Positions 19,787-37,604 of a stretch of 64,000 nucleotides of DNA are shown here, in pieces. Location of the stretch: the sequence record NC_054914.1; one strand, given 5' to 3'. The notes below the pieces were generated by a model that did no database searches, was not told the DNA's origin, and worked only from the letters and a program-made list of their open reading frames with translations. This stretch comes from Escherichia phage vB_EcoM-fFiEco06. The translations under genes were made by a program, and so were the position numbers. Position 1 is the stretch's first letter; each line of letters opens with the position of its first letter.

Positions 19787-20773
19787 TTATTTCAGAAGAG
19801 TAACCTCAGCGATTTCTTCCCAACCGTTTTTGTCGGTCATAATAAAGTCAGCAAGATAAAGAGCAGTACGCAGTGAAACATTGCGTAAACGATTAACATT
19901 AACTTTCATCCATGATAATGCTTTATAAGTTTCTTCATCAGAAAGACCGCGCTTTTGCATCATGTCGGTTGAAAGAATAACATCTTCAACCCTGACCATA
20001 ATTTCTTCATTAGTGTGAACACCCAAATCTAAATAAACTGAGCGGGACACTAATGCTTGTAAATGTGGAGCAAGTTTAGTACCACGGTCTAATTCGCGGT
20101 CAATATCAACGTTTGTGATAAAAACAATCGTTCCTTTAAATTCAAACTCACGCTCAATGCCTTTTTCTTCTAAGTAAGAAGATGCAGTGCTCCAGCAGAC
20201 TTTACGGGTCTCTCCAGTGTCCAGAGCAGCTTTCAGAAGATTAAGAATGTCCATATCAGAGAAAACATCCACATCATCAATCAAAAGGACAGAATTCTCT
20301 TCACGATTATTCCAAAGTTGTTCATAAAGACCGATACCGGAGATTTTACCGTTAATGCTTTTATATTCAATGTATCCATTATCATTTGCTTTATTCAAAG
20401 CTTTATCTAAAGAATACGTTTTACCAATACCCGCCGCACCAGAGATAATTAATGAACGAATGTTTCCGTTAATAATACCATTCGTCATCATTCCCATAAC
20501 ATTAAATCTTTTATTAATGCGGGTTTTCATATCTTCATATGATTCTTTAACTTCTTCAACTTTTACACCATCATATGAAATGTCTGATTTGTAAACCCAA
20601 ACACCGCGACGCTTACCGTCAATTTCAACAAAAACTTTACCATCTCCTTGTGCATCTACCGGAGCATTATCTGGGAACCATTCACCTAAGAGCTCAAAAG
20701 TTCCAGAGATTTCTTTACCGAAGTAGATACCCTTATTGATAGTTACAGTTTTCATTTTATTCTCCAATCTCAC
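19787..20773 (-). CDS. P-loop ATPase (AAA-like) with N-terminal extra domain
   Basis: 328 aa; Walker A GAAGIGKT, Walker B VLLIDDVD. Confidence 0.6.
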   Translation of the reverse strand: MRLENKMKTVTINKGIYFGKEISGTFELLGEWFPDNAPVDAQGDGKVFVEIDGKRRGVWVYKSDISYDGVKVEEVKESYEDMKTRINKRFNVMGMMTNGIINGNIRSLIISGAAGIGKTYSLDKALNKANDNGYIEYKSINGKISGIGLYEQLWNNREENSVLLIDDVDVFSDMDILNLLKAALDTGETRKVCWSTASSYLEEKGIEREFEFKGTIVFITNVDIDRELDRGTKLAPHLQALVSRSVYLDLGVHTNEEIMVRVEDVILSTDMMQKRGLSDEETYKALSWMKVNVNRLRNVSLRTALYLADFIMTDKNGWEEIAEVTLLK

Positions 20774-20824: not shown

Positions 20825-21088
20825 TTATTTTAACGTTCGCCAAATTTTTACTGCTTCACGGCGAGATACTTCTACAGCTCCAAGTTCTACAGCTTTTTGG
20901 CGTCGGCGAGCGTGTAAGTCATAATGTTTAATGCGTTTATCTTGAAACCAAGAACGTTTCATTCCTATTGCTTCTGCCATTTCATGAAGCTCTTCAATAT
21001 CTCCATCAGTGAACATATGACAATTTTTAGTTGGATGACCGCGAAGTTTCCATCCATGATTCATTAAAACATCTACGTAAACTGTCAT
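20825..21088 (-). CDS. Small conserved protein (resembles a bacterial DUF4031-type domain)
   Basis: 87 aa; HMFTDG...EELHEMAEAIGMKRSWFQ...HYDL motif. Family assignment from memory. Confidence 0.4.
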   Translation of the reverse strand: MTVYVDVLMNHGWKLRGHPTKNCHMFTDGDIEELHEMAEAIGMKRSWFQDKRIKHYDLHARRRQKAVELGAVEVSRREAVKIWRTLK

Positions 21089-21317: not shown

Positions 21318-21349
21318 TTTGAAATAAAAAAGGGAGCCCGAAGGCTCCC
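21318..21349 (-). terminator. Rho-independent terminator
   Basis: GGGAGCC-UUCG-GGCUCCC followed by UUUUUUAUUU on the minus strand. Confidence 0.7.
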
Positions 21350-21351
21350 TA

Positions 21352-22365
21352 TCATTTATAATAACTTCGGTGGTTTTCAAGATAAACCCTCTCAAGGAAG
21401 TCATCCCAAAAACCCATGTCTACTTTTTGCTGCATACCGTTCTTAGAAGCTTCAGTAGATGCTGCTTCTACTTGATCGACCACATCTTCCAAAAACTCTT
21501 GAACCGTTTTAAATGGATGTTTACCCAACTTCACGTCGAGAATAAATGGAGCATCTTGGAGTGGATAAACCAAGTCACCAGTTTTGTAAATTTCCAATAG
21601 TTGGAGTCCACCACGGCAAGCATGACTCAGAGCTTTCCAGTCAATACCTTCATTGGCTTCGGCCTTACGAGCACGTTCACCGTATTCAGCATCTAATTTG
21701 TTCAGTGACTGCTTAAGCTCAATAAGAGAAAGCGTTGTCTGATATTTACGACCCAACACTGTGTAGAACGTCTGTGGGCCTGTTTTCTCATGATTATGGA
21801 ACACCCATTCACAGAATTCGTTTTCTGGAAGACGATGCTTAATATCTTCAACTTTAGTACGACGCTGCTTAATAGAACCATCTTCTTGGTAATCAACCCA
21901 TTGCTCAGGGATTTGATTAACTACTTTCAATACATCACGTAATGCAGCCAAACGAGAACCCTTAACGCCGTATTTAGAAGCTTGCTTACGGACATATCCT
22001 AAATAGGATTTCATGTTAGTCGTATAAAAACGAGAACGGTTGTCTTGAATAAACTTCCACACATCAGGCAAATCAGATTTAACCACTAGTTCAGGTGGAG
22101 TGTGAAGCATATCTAACGCTACAGTTTCACCATCTGCTGCTAATTTAAAGAAATATTTAAGACTGTATAGTTCATGGTCAATATCATCTTTAGTGTTTTT
22201 AGATGATGTGTTGTTAGTGTTTTTACTCATGTGCTCTTTAACATTTCCGATAAGAATATCACGAGCAGGAGGAACAAAGATTTCTTTAAAATCTACATCA
22301 GATTCTGGGGTAGAAGTTCCATAAAGATGACTACCAAAATAGCTTTTCATTACTGTTTTCATCAT
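21352..22365 (-). CDS. Nucleotidyltransferase-fold protein (Pol-beta superfamily-like)
   Basis: 337 aa; N-terminal GSHLYGTSTPESDVD matches the hG[GS]x(9-13)DxD pattern. Confidence 0.5.
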   Translation of the reverse strand: MMKTVMKSYFGSHLYGTSTPESDVDFKEIFVPPARDILIGNVKEHMSKNTNNTSSKNTKDDIDHELYSLKYFFKLAADGETVALDMLHTPPELVVKSDLPDVWKFIQDNRSRFYTTNMKSYLGYVRKQASKYGVKGSRLAALRDVLKVVNQIPEQWVDYQEDGSIKQRRTKVEDIKHRLPENEFCEWVFHNHEKTGPQTFYTVLGRKYQTTLSLIELKQSLNKLDAEYGERARKAEANEGIDWKALSHACRGGLQLLEIYKTGDLVYPLQDAPFILDVKLGKHPFKTVQEFLEDVVDQVEAASTEASKNGMQQKVDMGFWDDFLERVYLENHRSYYK

Positions 22366-22823
22366 TCAGCCTTATATTCAATAACAGGACATACTTTAGC
22401 TTTACGAGCTTTTAAAAATTCAACGATAATCGATTTCTTGGGTTGAATAGGAGGTAAACCTTTATACGCCCTATCAATATTTTCTACGTGTAAAGCATAA
22501 TCCTTTTTCCATTTATAATCTTTATATTTTTCACGCAGTTGTGCAGGAATAACAAATGAACCGATAATAAGTAAAACAAGCAAAATGGCAAGTATAAATG
22601 CTGATGGAATAAGAGTCCATAAACTACCAAAAATAAGCCATTTCTGTATGATTTCTGCGCAGATGATAGTTAGACCTACGAGTATAGTACATCCGAAAAA
22701 AGAAACGAAAAATGTAGGGATAACAATAGACCAAAAGTATGCGCACAGCGTCTTAGGTCGTTGCCATTCATCGTTAAACAATTTGAATAATTTATAGTGC
22801 CAAGAGTTTTCATTAATAATCAT
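22362..22823 (-). CDS. Membrane protein
   Basis: 153 aa with 2-3 hydrophobic helices. Confidence 0.5.
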   Translation of the reverse strand: MIINENSWHYKLFKLFNDEWQRPKTLCAYFWSIVIPTFFVSFFGCTILVGLTIICAEIIQKWLIFGSLWTLIPSAFILAILLVLLIIGSFVIPAQLREKYKDYKWKKDYALHVENIDRAYKGLPPIQPKKSIIVEFLKARKAKVCPVIEYKAE

Positions 22824-22825
22824 AA

Positions 22826-23347
22826 TTATCCTTTCATTGAAGGTGTAACAGTTGTTAAATACTTAATCATAGCTTCAGCTTCTGATTTTGATAATGAAAT
22901 TTCTTCATTGTTTTGACGAATAGAAATAAAATCCGGATGACGGTCACCACCAGCTTTTAAAACACACATATAAGTATCAGTTTCATCTTCAATATCTGAA
23001 ATGATTGAAGCAGTTCCACATGAATGCGGTTTTTGATAAATCAATACAGCTTTTCTTCCGCCATTTGACTGTTCATAAACTTTTAATACATCAAACAAAT
23101 CACTTCTTTTATCAATAGCTAAAATGTTATTTTCATCTTCAATGTTAAATCCTTCGGATACTTCATAAAGTGTCACCCATAAATCGCCAATATCAATAAC
23201 AGCGTTCACTTTTCCATGACTTTCAAGAGCATGACAAATTTTCTTGATTTCGTCATAACTCATTTTAATAATATCATCTCCTTGAATAAGAAAGATGTCA
23301 TTTTTAAATTCAACACGAATTAAACCACTTCCACTTGAAATAAACAT
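22826..23347 (-). CDS. Hypothetical protein, paralog of 23354..23911
   Basis: 173 aa; C-terminal SKSEAEAMIKYLTTVTPSM resembles TKDEAIALKTYLDSVIPTM of the neighbour. Confidence 0.5.
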   Translation of the reverse strand: MFISSGSGLIRVEFKNDIFLIQGDDIIKMSYDEIKKICHALESHGKVNAVIDIGDLWVTLYEVSEGFNIEDENNILAIDKRSDLFDVLKVYEQSNGGRKAVLIYQKPHSCGTASIISDIEDETDTYMCVLKAGGDRHPDFISIRQNNEEISLSKSEAEAMIKYLTTVTPSMKG

Positions 23348-23353
23348 ATTTCC

Positions 23354-23911
23354 TCACTTTGAAATCATAGTTGGAATGACAGAATCGAGATAAGTCTTTA
23401 GCGCAATAGCTTCGTCTTTGGTAAATGTGACAATATACGATCGAAAATCATCAATTTGACGAATAGTTAAGACATCACCATCTTCATAGCATTTTGATAC
23501 GTTTAAAACAGTTTCATCATTCTGATTGCAAGCGTTAGTAATAATAGCATTGCAATTTTTGAGCCATTTTAAACTATGTTTTCTTTCATTAGAATAATAA
23601 AAATATTTAATCTTATCTATAAAACTATCCCAATGGATAACTGATAAACACATTGACTCACTTTTAATATTAAATCCTGGGCATGAAGAATAAAAATGAA
23701 TTTTGTGCTCATCATTGATGCTTACTATTTTATCAGTATAAGGATATTCAATTTGGGTTAAATGAATGATTTCACTAGGCGTAAAATATAGCATATCGTC
23801 TTCTTGTGTCAAACGATACATATTATTTACTTTTTCTATAGCTAATTCACCAAAAAGCGGACTAACTTCTAATACTAATCGTTTCATATTGATTCTCTTC
23901 GACTCACCCAC
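23354..23911 (-). CDS. Hypothetical protein, paralog of 22826..23347
   Basis: 185 aa; GTG start. Confidence 0.5.
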   Translation of the reverse strand: MGESKRINMKRLVLEVSPLFGELAIEKVNNMYRLTQEDDMLYFTPSEIIHLTQIEYPYTDKIVSINDEHKIHFYSSCPGFNIKSESMCLSVIHWDSFIDKIKYFYYSNERKHSLKWLKNCNAIITNACNQNDETVLNVSKCYEDGDVLTIRQIDDFRSYIVTFTKDEAIALKTYLDSVIPTMISK

Positions 23912-24894: not shown

Positions 24895-24920
24895 AATGAA
24901 AAAAGTCTCCCGAAGGAGAC
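24895..24920 (-). terminator. Rho-independent terminator
   Basis: GUCUCC-UUCG-GGAGAC followed by UUUUUUCAUUUU. Confidence 0.65.
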
Positions 24921-24925
24921 TAATG

Positions 24926-25312
24926 TTATTCGAGGGAAAGAAGATACTTACTCTGGTAAAACATTCCAGTAATATCATCTATCGTGCTTTGAATGGCTGG
25001 AGGCATTTCTTTATAAATGCTGTTAGATTGGTCTAGTATGCGATCAATCATTTTAATTGTGTCGGTAGGAAGTTTACTGGCATCTGGAATTGAAGGCGTG
25101 TATTTTCTACCAGAATACCCCAAATATTGCTCACCAAATTTATCAATCAAATCTGGCAATTCGGAGAAAATAAAATCGTATGCTTTGTGTCTAGCATAAC
25201 TTTTAGTTTCAAAATGCGCAGAATGAAAATAAGCTTGTGCAGCCATTAATAAACCTAAGTATTCATCTGCCTTTGAAGGTTTTCCACTTTGTGAAAAGTC
25301 GCTGAATTTCAT
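24926..25312 (-). CDS. Hypothetical protein (rI.1 position)
   Basis: 128 aa, directly downstream of rI. Confidence 0.45.
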
Positions 25313-25602
25313 TCAGTCTCCAATTTAATGTTCATAATTCTAGCGTATGATTGTGCCATCTCCGCGCCTCGTTCTATACATTCAAAATCAGAAGAGCACG
25401 GGTCATTTTTATAGGTCGTTCTCATAAAACTATAGAACTGTTCAGATGATTCTACGCTTTTATTTTCAAAAAGCATATAAACATGTCTAATACCAGATTC
25501 CATAAATTTATCAAAATGAGGATCGACATTCGCTTCAATCGATGGAGATAAAACAAATGACAATCCTAGCATGGCAAATAGTGCCGTTGCTTTTAAGGCC
25601 AT
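25309..25602 (-). CDS. rI: Lysis inhibition regulator RI (antiholin)
   Basis: 97 aa; N-terminal signal-anchor MALKATALFAMLGLSFVLSPSIEA; matches T4 RI as recalled. Confidence 0.85.
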   Translation of the reverse strand: MALKATALFAMLGLSFVLSPSIEANVDPHFDKFMESGIRHVYMLFENKSVESSEQFYSFMRTTYKNDPCSSDFECIERGAEMAQSYARIMNIKLETE

Positions 25603-25869: not shown

Positions 25870-26451
25870 CTAACCGAGCTTTTTAGTTAATTCATTCCAA
25901 TGTTTTCTACACAAAGAAACATAAATTTCATCACCAATACAGATTTGATTACCTTCTTTAACTGGTGTTCCATCTTCCATTAATCGAGCTGTCATAATCG
26001 CTTTTTTACCACAATGACAAACTGCTTTTAATTCAATAAGTTTATCTGCAATCGCTAAAAGTTCTTTAGAACCTTCAAATAATTTTCCAGCGAAATCAGT
26101 CCTTAATCCATAAGCCATAACAGGAACATTATATGTATCAACAATTCGACTTAATTGATGCACTTGTTCAGTTTTTAAAAACTGAGCTTCATCTACAAAT
26201 ACGCAATGAATATCTTTTTGTGCTTCAGCCCATTTATAGAACTCGAAAATATCCATATCATCTGTAATAATATTCGCTTCCTGTTTAATTCCAATGCGAG
26301 AAACAACTTCACAGACAGAATCGCGAGTATCAATAGCAGGCTTAAGAACTAATACACTCATTCCACGTTCTTTATAATTATGTGCAGCAGTCAAAAGAGA
26401 AGCAGATTTTCCAGCATTCATTGCTGCATAAGTAAAAATTAAACTCGCCAT
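25870..26451 (-). CDS. tk: Thymidine kinase
   Basis: 193 aa; P-loop AMNAGKS and C-terminal CHCGKKA...C zinc motif. Confidence 0.92.
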   Translation of the reverse strand: MASLIFTYAAMNAGKSASLLTAAHNYKERGMSVLVLKPAIDTRDSVCEVVSRIGIKQEANIITDDMDIFEFYKWAEAQKDIHCVFVDEAQFLKTEQVHQLSRIVDTYNVPVMAYGLRTDFAGKLFEGSKELLAIADKLIELKAVCHCGKKAIMTARLMEDGTPVKEGNQICIGDEIYVSLCRKHWNELTKKLG

Positions 26452-36776: not shown

Positions 36777-36852
36777 TGGTCGAGGCAGTAGGGATCGAAC
36801 CTACGACCCAGGACTTAGAAGGTCCTTGCTCTTCCTTCTGAGCTATGCCTCG
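36777..36852 (-). tRNA. tRNA-Arg (anticodon UCU)
   Basis: Hand-folded cloverleaf: acceptor CGAGGCA/UGCCUCG, anticodon loop CUUCUAA, T-arm GGTTCGATCC, encoded CCA. Confidence 0.8.
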
Positions 36853-36856
36853 TATT

Positions 36857-36931
36857 TGGCGGACGTGATAGGATTCGAACCTATAACCAATCGCTTAACA
36901 GGCGATCGCTCTGCCATTGAGCTACACATCC
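36857..36931 (-). tRNA. tRNA-Asn (anticodon GUU)
   Basis: Acceptor GGATGTG/CACGTCC, anticodon stem ATCGC/GCGAT with loop CTGTTAA, T-loop TTCGAAT, CCA. Confidence 0.7.
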
Positions 36932-36935
36932 AAAT

Positions 36936-37022
36936 TGGTGGGGAGTGGTGGAGTCGAACCACCCGAGTCGCAATGACAATGAATTTACAGTCCACACCGC
37001 TACCTCTACGGGATAACTCCCC
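36936..37022 (-). tRNA. tRNA-Tyr (anticodon GUA), long variable arm
   Basis: 87 nt; acceptor GGGGAGT/ACTCCCC, anticodon loop CTGTAAA, T-arm GGTGGTTCGACTCCACC, CCA. Confidence 0.65.
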
Positions 37023-37031
37023 AAATTAATT

Positions 37032-37106
37032 TGGTGGCCCTGGGTGGAATTGAACCACCATCTGGCGATTATGAGTCGCTTGCTTGAACCTTCCAGCTAC
37101 AGGGCC
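37032..37106 (-). tRNA. tRNA-Ile/Met (anticodon CAU)
   Basis: Acceptor GGCCCTG/CAGGGCC, anticodon loop CTCATAA, CCA. Confidence 0.75.
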
Positions 37107-37107
37107 T

Positions 37108-37183
37108 TGGTGCTGATTGACGGAATCGAACCGCCGACCTTCTCATTACAAGTGAGTTGCTCTACCTACTGAGCTAAATCAGC
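37108..37183 (-). tRNA. tRNA-Thr (anticodon UGU)
   Basis: Acceptor GCTGATT/AATCAGC, anticodon loop CTTGTAA, T-arm GGTTCGATTCC, CCA. Confidence 0.8.
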
Positions 37184-37188
37184 AAAAC

Positions 37189-37278
37189 TGGCGGAGGCGA
37201 TAGGATTTGAACCTATGAGTCGCCGGAGCGACTGCCGGTTTTCAAGACCGGTGCATTAAACCACTCTGCCACGCCTCC
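37189..37278 (-). tRNA. tRNA-Ser (anticodon UGA), long variable arm
   Basis: 90 nt; acceptor GGAGGCG/CGCCTCC, anticodon loop CTTGAAA. Confidence 0.8.
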
Positions 37279-37280
37279 AG

Positions 37281-37354
37281 TCTCCGTGGCAGGATTTGAA
37301 CCTACGACATTCTGCTCCCAAAGCAGACGCTCTACCAAACTGAGCTACACGGAG
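37281..37354 (-). tRNA. tRNA-Pro (anticodon UGG), CCA not encoded
   Basis: Acceptor CTCCGTG/CACGGAG, anticodon loop TTTGGGA; separated from tRNA-Ser by 2 nt. Confidence 0.8.
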
Positions 37355-37364
37355 TAAATTAAAT

Positions 37365-37438
<74 letters not shown>

Positions 37439-37443
37439 AAATT

Positions 37444-37530
37444 TGGTGCGAGAAGTGGGACTCGAACCCACAAGGAAATCATTCCGCAGCATTTTAAGTG
37501 CTGTGCCTTTACCAATTTGGCCATTCTCGC
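37444..37530 (-). tRNA. tRNA-Leu (anticodon UAA), long variable arm
   Basis: 87 nt; matches T4 tRNA-Leu as recalled (GCGAGAATGGTCAAATTGG...). Confidence 0.85.
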
Positions 37531-37531
37531 G

Positions 37532-37604
37532 CTGGGAATAAAGGACTCGAACCTTTGCATCCTGGAATCAAAATCCAGTGCCTTACCAACTTGGCTAATT
37601 CCCA
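37532..37604 (-). tRNA. tRNA-Gln (anticodon UUG), CCA not encoded
   Basis: TGGGAATTAGCCAAGTTGGTAAGGCACTGGATTTTGATTCCAGG...; abuts tRNA-Leu with a 1-nt spacer. Confidence 0.85.

Follow-up and report, generated by a model that had tools for sequence, protein, structure and literature searches.

NrdC.11 of T4-like phages, a long-form RlaP-family nucleotidyltransferase with a putative role in tRNA repair

The 64,000-nucleotide stretch of the genome of Escherichia phage vB_EcoM-fFiEco06 analysed here (sequence record NC_054914.1; hereafter the window) carries an open reading frame (ORF) that is the gene nrdC.11 of T4-like (Tequatrovirus) phages. Family and fold support the assignment of its product, NrdC.11, to the nucleotidyltransferases (NTases) of the Pol-beta superfamily, and at the sequence level it is a distinct long form of the RlaP family that appears to have in common with canonical RlaP only a catalytic core of ~95 residues. 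The clade formed by this long form extends beyond phages. We lean towards the view that NrdC.11 is a template-independent RNA 3'-end nucleotidyltransferase that would restore nucleotides lost from nuclease-damaged tRNA before ligation. The gene, its fold, the RlaP assignment and the repair hypothesis are already in the literature and databases, so the finding is a correct re-discovery; our additions are modest, namely the recognition of the T4 protein as a separate long form and the observation that, in RNA-repair operons of bacteria, this form stands in tandem with canonical RlaP.

Gene identity and the nucleotidyltransferase core

Over its 1,014 base pairs (bp), the nrdC.11 stretch is 100% identical in DNA sequence to Tequatrovirus genomes such as vB_EcoM-fHoEco02, and its product shares 100% of its residues with the ECML-134 protein and 99.1% with the T4 protein. 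A preliminary description of this DNA had pointed to an ORF of 337 amino acids (aa) at 21352-22365 and left its strand unstated; the ORF is present and lies on the minus strand. The gene and the parts of its product discussed below are the following.

21352-22365, minus strand: nrdC.11 coding sequence, 337 aa from the first ATG; long-form RlaP-family Pol-beta nucleotidyltransferase
22081-22359, minus strand: N-terminal NTase catalytic core (residues ~3-95), from conservation, hhalign and model strands
21739-21903, minus strand: variable beta subdomain (residues ~155-209), specific to the long form, from AlphaFold2 secondary structure
21355-21726, minus strand: C-terminal helical bundle (residues 214-337; model helices 214-336)

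The signature of Pol-beta-superfamily NTases, which the preliminary description had placed at the beginning of the protein, is present as FGSHLYGTSTPESDVDF at residues 10-26 and is the single match to the regular expression h-G-[GS]-x(9-13)-[DE]-h-[DE]-h; it starts at residue 10, and the protein itself opens with MMKTVMKSYF rather than GSH. A chance occurrence of the motif is excluded by the match to Pfam RlaP described below, by that to PHROG 388 'nucleotidyltransferase' (E = 8e-137) and by the breadth of the family. An exhaustive homolog search of 1.84 billion cluster representatives at E ≤ 1e-3 returned 3,421 relatives (827 with E ≤ 1e-30), and nearly all of the 150 representatives listed are full length.

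The NTase core carries G11-S12, D23-x-D25, a K56-N57-T58 loop, D61/D63 and D85. Conservation was assessed in the 150 representatives listed, whose top matches are 36-58% identical to NrdC.11. G11 and S12 are kept in 147/147 aligned representatives, and H248 and R251, which lie far outside the core, in 149/149. The acidic residues, whose variation had been named beforehand as a sign against an NTase, are conserved throughout: D23 and D25 in 146/146 aligned representatives, with position 63 acidic in all 147 (D in 143, E in 4). In a second alignment of 52 sequences, 34-55% identical to NrdC.11, the invariant positions are G11, S12, D23, D25, N57, D63, Y132, R231, H248, R251, P268 and K279.

Predicted structure

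An AlphaFold2 model of NrdC.11, built on the 52-sequence alignment, has a predicted local distance difference test (pLDDT) score of 93.4 and a predicted template modelling (pTM) score of 0.84, and places the motif in an NTase fold, as the preliminary description had expected. The core strands of the model span residues 3-10, 24-31, 45-49 and 62-68; the G-S turn follows the first of them, D-x-D lies on the second, and D63, which would serve as the third catalytic carboxylate of the superfamily, is on strand 62-68. The G-[GS]...DxD motif, the third carboxylate and the alpha-beta-alpha-beta-alpha-beta minimal fold that mark the Pol-beta superfamily (Pfam clan CL0260) are therefore all found in NrdC.11.

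A helical linker (residues ~100-151 in the model) joins the core to the beta subdomain, whose five predicted strands (155-159, 165-169, 185-192, 196-203 and 206-209) make up the most variable, indel- and gap-rich block of the family alignment. The "large helical C-terminal region" of the preliminary description holds for the helices and the bundle at 214-336, and misses the five-strand subdomain between them. The C-terminal bundle contains the most conserved motif of the family, Y-G-x-R231...D-W-K244-A-x-S-H248-A-x-R251, together with P268 and K279, and is likely to be a wall of the cleft that binds NTP and RNA. It is HEPN-like, as in KNTase-type enzymes, and is probably a substrate-binding domain.

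Structural comparison of the model with the PDB by Foldseek gave Pol-beta NTases as the top matches, all of them weak (E ≥ 4e-3, template modelling (TM) score ≤ 0.39). Sequence searches of the PDB with the protein and with the 52-sequence profile gave only spurious matches (best E = 0.75), the PfRlaP structure not being among the entries searched. In a viral structure library, phage NTases of 230-285 aa align with the model over their full length at target-normalised TM scores of 0.5-0.7, which makes it plausible that these proteins and the long form follow a common two-domain plan, with the beta subdomain inserted in the latter.

Relation to canonical RlaP

NrdC.11 matches Pfam RlaP (PF10127) with 44.3 bits (E = 2.4e-11) against a gathering cut-off of 23, over profile positions 23-142 of 249 only, and all 52 aligned homologs match the same model. 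When the long-form profile was compared by hhalign with 12 canonical RlaPs, only residues 3-94 aligned (94% probability, E = 1.2e-7), and D63 and D85 were paired with an invariant Asp and an invariant Glu, respectively, of the canonical form. The two forms thus have in common a Pol-beta core with G-S, D-x-D and the third Asp in register, and in both an NTase domain is followed by a helical domain. In contrast, no significant sequence or profile similarity to canonical RlaP extends beyond residue ~95: a trimmed profile-profile alignment of the C-terminal parts gave E = 0.24 (runs 0.13-0.51). The best C-terminal path, within a match that is not significant, is co-linear and passes a K-x3-[H/Y]-A-x-R motif, spaced identically in the helical domains of both forms. 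NrdC.11 is also longer by ~70-80 residues (337 aa versus 254-277 aa), and its beta subdomain at ~155-209 has no counterpart in canonical RlaP. A search of the window with a hidden Markov model from the 12 canonical paralogs found no canonical RlaP, the only match being a weak one to nrdC.11 itself.

Much of what is known of the family concerns its canonical members. An NTase domain (COG3541) was reported in nrdC.11 orthologs in 2006 (PMC1524935), and many GenBank records name the gene 'nucleotidyltransferase' or 'RNA repair pathway DNA polymerase beta family protein'. Later papers (PMC7824862 and PMC6514570) credit the name RlaP to Burroughs and Aravind (2016), for its linkage to RNA ligases, and give their prediction that the enzyme puts back nucleotides missing from cleaved RNA ahead of its ligation, as would be needed once RloC has removed the wobble base. 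That RloC takes out the wobble nucleotide and should thereby hamper repair by the phage is stated in PMC2610378 and PMC3458546. In a December 2025 preprint by Carruthers, Fatma and Huang, PfRlaP and PaRlaP of Pseudomonas add 1-2 NMPs or dNMPs to RNA 3'-OH ends, prefer Mn2+, do not use DNA or protein as substrates, act preferentially on the 5' half of a mimic of cleaved tRNA and partly restore the aminoacylation of a tRNA lacking one anticodon-loop nucleotide, and the crystal structure of PfRlaP has its last helix packed back onto the NTase domain (PMC12776372). These enzymes are canonical and not long-form RlaPs; in the PF10127 similarity network of the same study they fall in cluster 1a, and T4 NrdC.11 falls in cluster 5, 'RlaP of unknown function'. 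The preliminary description had called the substrate unknown, a wording that this study has overtaken for the RlaP family (RNA 3'-OH ends) and that still fits NrdC.11, whose own substrate we infer.

Clade members in bacteria and archaea

Scanning one genome for each prokaryotic species, we found the long form at 141 loci, on chromosomes or in metagenome-assembled genomes, from Desulfobacterales, Nitrospirota, Alphaproteobacteria, Chlamydiales, archaea and others. For the neighbourhood analysis, 80 bacterial and archaeal loci were kept, many of them on short contigs, and the neighbouring genes were annotated by Pfam. RNA-repair genes recur among these neighbours, with RtcB at 9 loci, Pnkp at 5, Hen1 at 3, Ro60/TROVE at 3 and, directly beside the long form, RtcA at 2 and a T4-type Rnl1 at 1, so that at least 14 of the 80 loci have an RNA-repair neighbour. 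Such genes are rare in genomes, and by an informal background estimate we judge them strongly enriched near the long form. The signal was seen only after Pfam annotation; BLAST-level clustering of the neighbours found no single dominant partner family apart from RlaP. Genomic linkage to RtcB, Pnkp/Hen1 and Rnl-type ligases is likewise a property of canonical RlaP.

Two loci illustrate the arrangement as tight, co-directional operons. In a Chlamydiales member (L084) the order is Hen1, Pnkp, long form and canonical RlaP, and in Nitrosospira (L039) it is Ro60, RtcB, a gene for a 338-aa protein, long form, canonical RlaP, Hen1, two further genes and Pnkp. More generally, an RlaP-like gene lies immediately downstream of the long form on the same strand in 15 of ~73 loci (about 20%), always in the order long form, then canonical, with gaps of -19 to +250 bp that are mostly below 50 bp. 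These tandem loci are L009, L022, L028, L034, L039, L047, L054, L057, L062, L072, L073, L077, L078, L083 and L084. Complete ORFs of 252-277 aa encode 12 of the 15 partners; the other three are truncated, two of them at contig ends. All ten partners scanned are canonical full-length matches to Pfam RlaP (E 1e-51 to 1e-81), the copies at L039:8979-9746 and L084:8987-9799 serving as examples. The long and canonical forms are therefore paralogs kept together in tandem, which argues for non-redundant roles. In the RlaP literature, the original 2016 family description aside, we found no mention of this pair.

A different association was noticed at three bacterial loci, where a protein of 507-516 aa with a uracil-DNA-glycosylase-superfamily domain (L010:1614-3161, L012:7846-9393 and L019:9561-11084) and a ResIII/DEAD helicase are encoded by adjacent genes. 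Both come within 2-5 genes downstream of the NrdC.11-type gene, a recurrent context that is not obviously connected with RNA repair.

Distribution in phages

The long form was found in 1,516 phage records, mostly of T4-like Straboviridae. Canonical RlaP was found in 86 records, most of them from jumbo phages with large genomes, the phiKZ-like group for example; T4-like phages are absent from this set. Unlike at the bacterial loci with RNA-repair neighbours, no RNA ligase or kinase gene stands beside the phage nrdC.11 within the window. Rheinheimera phage Barba31A encodes a CCA-adding tRNA nucleotidyltransferase at a distance of two genes from its long-form homolog; a search for tRNA genes in the gap free of coding sequences beside this homolog found none, and no RNA ligase is annotated within the first 50 kilobases of that phage.

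The window also holds ten tRNA genes at 36777-37604 on the minus strand (Arg, Asn, Tyr, Met (CAU), Thr, Ser, Pro, Gly, Leu and Gln). The 3' CCA is encoded in eight of the ten; tRNA-Pro and tRNA-Gln lack it and thus need post-transcriptional nucleotide addition.

Comparison with other nucleotidyltransferase families

The preliminary description had proposed a comparison with the CD-NTase, MNT/HEPN and CCA-adding families, and no evidence for membership in any of them was obtained. A CD-NTase or cGAS-like signal synthase of the cyclic oligonucleotide-based anti-phage signalling (CBASS) type was rejected, since neither a CD-NTase/SMODS match in Pfam nor a PADLOC match was found; the suggested synthesis or mimicry of a nucleotide signal gained no support from these searches. 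Nucleotidylation of a host protein, also suggested earlier, fared no better: membership of MntA (type VII toxin-antitoxin) was rejected at 13.2 bits in model NF047752 against a cut-off of 60. MntA/HepT systems have a separate toxin gene, and none lies beside nrdC.11. The bundle of NrdC.11 lacks a conserved Rx4-6H, the only match to this motif being in the non-conserved C-terminal tail. Class II CCA-adding enzymes (PF01743, PolyA_pol) are template-independent members of the superfamily that act on tRNA 3' ends, as is proposed for NrdC.11. They differ from it in their head-neck-body-tail architecture, are absent from the top fold matches, and PF01743 does not match NrdC.11 at E ≤ 1.

Two other groups resemble NrdC.11 in fold. 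Hailong HalB (PDB 9dbh/9dbj), an anti-phage NTase that synthesises oligodeoxyadenylate, is 14% identical to NrdC.11, with no relation at the sequence level; it has 217 aa, lacks the beta subdomain and the long bundle, and pairs with a channel effector, whereas the NrdC.11 clade pairs with RNA ligases. Kanamycin NTase/ANT(4') and LinB, in which an NTase domain is combined with a KNTase_C/HEPN-like helical domain, have no sequence similarity to NrdC.11 and act on antibiotics, whereas the gene context and family biochemistry of NrdC.11 point to RNA.

Proposed function

The reading towards which we lean, that of an RNA 3'-end nucleotidyltransferase acting before ligation in tRNA repair, builds on the NTase fold, on the conserved catalytic residues, on membership in the RlaP family and on the occurrence of bacterial clade members among RNA-repair genes. 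The chemistry of NrdC.11 is transferred from the Pseudomonas RlaPs, which belong to another subfamily; its natural substrate and its role in T4 are inferred. In the proposed mechanism, D23, D25 and D63 of the N-terminal core would bind two divalent metal ions and the NTP, and R231, K244, H248, R251, K279 and Y132 would line the opposite wall of the cleft and position the RNA 3'-OH, to which NrdC.11 would add one or a few nucleotides. During infection it may rebuild tRNA nucleotides trimmed by host anticodon nucleases or ribotoxins, for example a RloC-type wobble-excising nuclease, and the phage kinase-phosphatase (PseT) and RNA ligases could afterwards reseal a functional tRNA. By the T4 map, the PseT and RNA ligase genes presumably lie outside the window.

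Several observations weigh against this reading. The activity of the long form would be assigned by analogy, the characterised enzymes and NrdC.11 sit in different network clusters (1a and 5), and homology to canonical RlaP is demonstrable for residues ~3-95 only, the C-terminal two-thirds giving E = 0.24. No RNA ligase or kinase gene adjoins nrdC.11 in this phage, and ~80% of the bacterial loci are without an RNA-repair neighbour in the stretch examined. Additionally, the nrdC.11 block can be deleted from T4 with viability kept on laboratory hosts, nrdC.11-mobD.3 being among the fragments lost from viable genome-reduced mutants (PMC9825161). The tandem pairing implies that the two forms are not interchangeable, and thus the activity of the long form need not be identical to that of canonical RlaP. 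Since NrdC.11 is a separate long form and such forms are paired with canonical RlaP, the Pseudomonas biochemistry should not be transferred to it unchecked.

The conserved long-then-canonical tandem suggests a second RNA-repair enzyme beside canonical RlaP. Each form might have its own preference for a nucleotide or for a type of RNA end, or the two might form a heterodimer, in a division of labour like that of the separate CC-adding and A-adding enzymes in CCA synthesis. We put forward tentatively, as a possibility that we would not ourselves expect to hold, that the long form is a second, functionally distinct RNA-repair nucleotidyltransferase working with canonical RlaP, and that T4-like phages have kept only the long form, as the third component of their tRNA repair.

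Alternative explanations

Two other explanations keep RNA as the substrate. NrdC.11 could mature or repair the 3' ends of the phage's own tRNAs, like a CCA-adding enzyme or together with one, by completing ends that are unencoded or nibbled, instead of serving anticodon-loop repair. The ten phage tRNA genes of the window, with Pro and Gln lacking an encoded CCA, and the Barba31A homolog two genes from a CCA-adding enzyme agree with such a role, as does the labelling of both full-length and cleaved tRNA in total E. coli RNA by RlaPs (PMC12776372). However, in an annealed cleaved-tRNA mimic the RlaPs prefer the anticodon-side over the acceptor 3' end, and their low NTP specificity makes them a poor fit to CCA synthesis (PMC12776372). 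NrdC.11 itself has no PF01743 match and no CCA enzyme among its top fold matches, and its bacterial neighbours are ligase and end-healing systems rather than tRNA genes. T4 tRNAs without CCA, moreover, rely on the host cca enzyme, and on the whole we regard a role in 3'-end maturation as unlikely. Regulatory 3'-tailing of RNA, for example as a mark that sends mRNA or small RNA of host or phage to decay, or stabilises it, at the early-to-late switch, would use chemistry identical to that predicted for tRNA repair; in vitro, RlaPs label single-stranded RNA as well as species of ribosomal RNA size (PMC12776372), and nrdC.11 stands among early accessory genes without an adjacent repair partner. 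Nevertheless, RlaPs add only 1-2 nucleotides and produce no tails (PMC12776372), the operons around the bacterial members serve specifically the healing and sealing of RNA ends, and no recurrent RNase or helicase partner accompanies the phage gene; we consider tailing quite improbable.

The remaining explanations look for a target other than RNA ends. It seems very unlikely to us that NrdC.11 modifies a protein or a small molecule, be it by MntA-like AMPylation of a HEPN toxin or host protein or by modification of a metabolite in the manner of aminoglycoside NTases: the MntA model covers 18 residues at 13.2 bits, the Rx4-6H motif is not conserved, no toxin-like gene adjoins nrdC.11 in the phage, E. 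coli proteins are not RlaP substrates (PMC12776372), and the gene context is that of RNA repair. The least credible explanation, in our estimate, is a HalB-like synthase that would polymerise (d)NTPs into a free product serving as a signal, decoy or sponge against host defence. NrdC.11 resembles HalB no further than in the minimal fold that both have (14% identity, TM ≤ 0.39), no profile match to any PDB chain, PADLOC defence model or CD-NTase/SMODS family was found, and the bacterial neighbours are RNA-repair genes rather than effector or channel genes. Furthermore, the characterised RlaPs stop at 1-2 additions and require an RNA 3'-OH (PMC12776372).

The nrdC.11 locus

The position of the gene in the nrdC-rI block of a T4-like genome, given in the preliminary description, was confirmed, with rI (25309-25602) and tk (25870-26451) as recognisable neighbours. 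The description had also placed nrdC.11 between a strong terminator (at 21318-21349) and membrane-protein genes, and both flanks were recovered.

22362-22823, minus strand: ORF of 153 aa upstream of nrdC.11, from the ORF list, with two strongly hydrophobic segments by hydropathy
21325-21350, minus strand: intrinsic terminator with an 8-bp G+C-rich stem, UUCG loop and U6 tail, from a terminator scan

The hairpin (21331-21350), GGGAGCC-UUCG-GGCUCCC followed by U6, lies immediately 3' of the nrdC.11 stop codon, and its RNA fold has a free energy of -17.7 kcal/mol (z -3.87). A further hairpin terminator on the minus strand at 24904-24921 (AGUCUCC-UUCG-GGAGACU with a U run) has the same UUCG tetraloop. 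Two in-frame ATGs stand at the start of nrdC.11 (22360-22365, minus strand), the first at 22365 and the second at 22362; database entries take the second, which gives 336 aa. The first ATG overlaps the stop codon of the preceding ORF as ATGA, so nrdC.11 and the 153-aa ORF are probably co-transcribed, and either choice of start implies translational coupling of nrdC.11 to the upstream gene. The hydrophobic segments of the 153-aa product are consistent with a putative membrane protein; a Pfam search with it gave no match, and MG781191 lists it as a hypothetical protein. The gene directly upstream of nrdC.11 in T4 is mobD, for an HNH homing endonuclease; its place is taken here by the 153-aa ORF. 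Further upstream, two tandem y05I-like paralogs (PF24449 + PF24448) lie on the minus strand at 22826-23347 and 23354-23911, completing the region 22362-23911.

On the other side, past the terminator and two genes downstream of nrdC.11, a DUF4031 protein of 87 aa is encoded at 20825-21088 on the minus strand (E = 8e-22), for which no informative literature was found. The same block contains NrdC.10 (328 aa, 19787-20773, minus strand), a P-loop protein that AAA and STAND-type NTPase profiles matched only below threshold, at residues ~102-209. Annotation of the block is uneven. The closest record names the gene NrdC.11, 'Member of Nuc-transf superfamily', and adds the spurious product name 'thioredoxin', which many T4-like records give to NrdC.4 through NrdC.11 (for example MG781191 HE2_087-HE2_096); the error spread from the gene-name prefix nrdC. 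One record names an NrdC.11 homolog 'HNH homing endonuclease' (P0006).

Implications

Repair of tRNA by kinase plus ligase in T4 is the founding example of RNA repair, and nucleotide-removing nucleases such as RloC are thought to be the hosts' answer to it. On the more tentative reading of the tandem pair, NrdC.11 would be a third, previously unrecognised component of the classic T4 tRNA repair pathway, with which the phage would overcome RloC-like nucleases whose removal of a nucleotide blocks restoration by kinase and ligase. Should NrdC.11 indeed rebuild the missing nucleotide, a three-step arms race would be complete in the best-studied phage.

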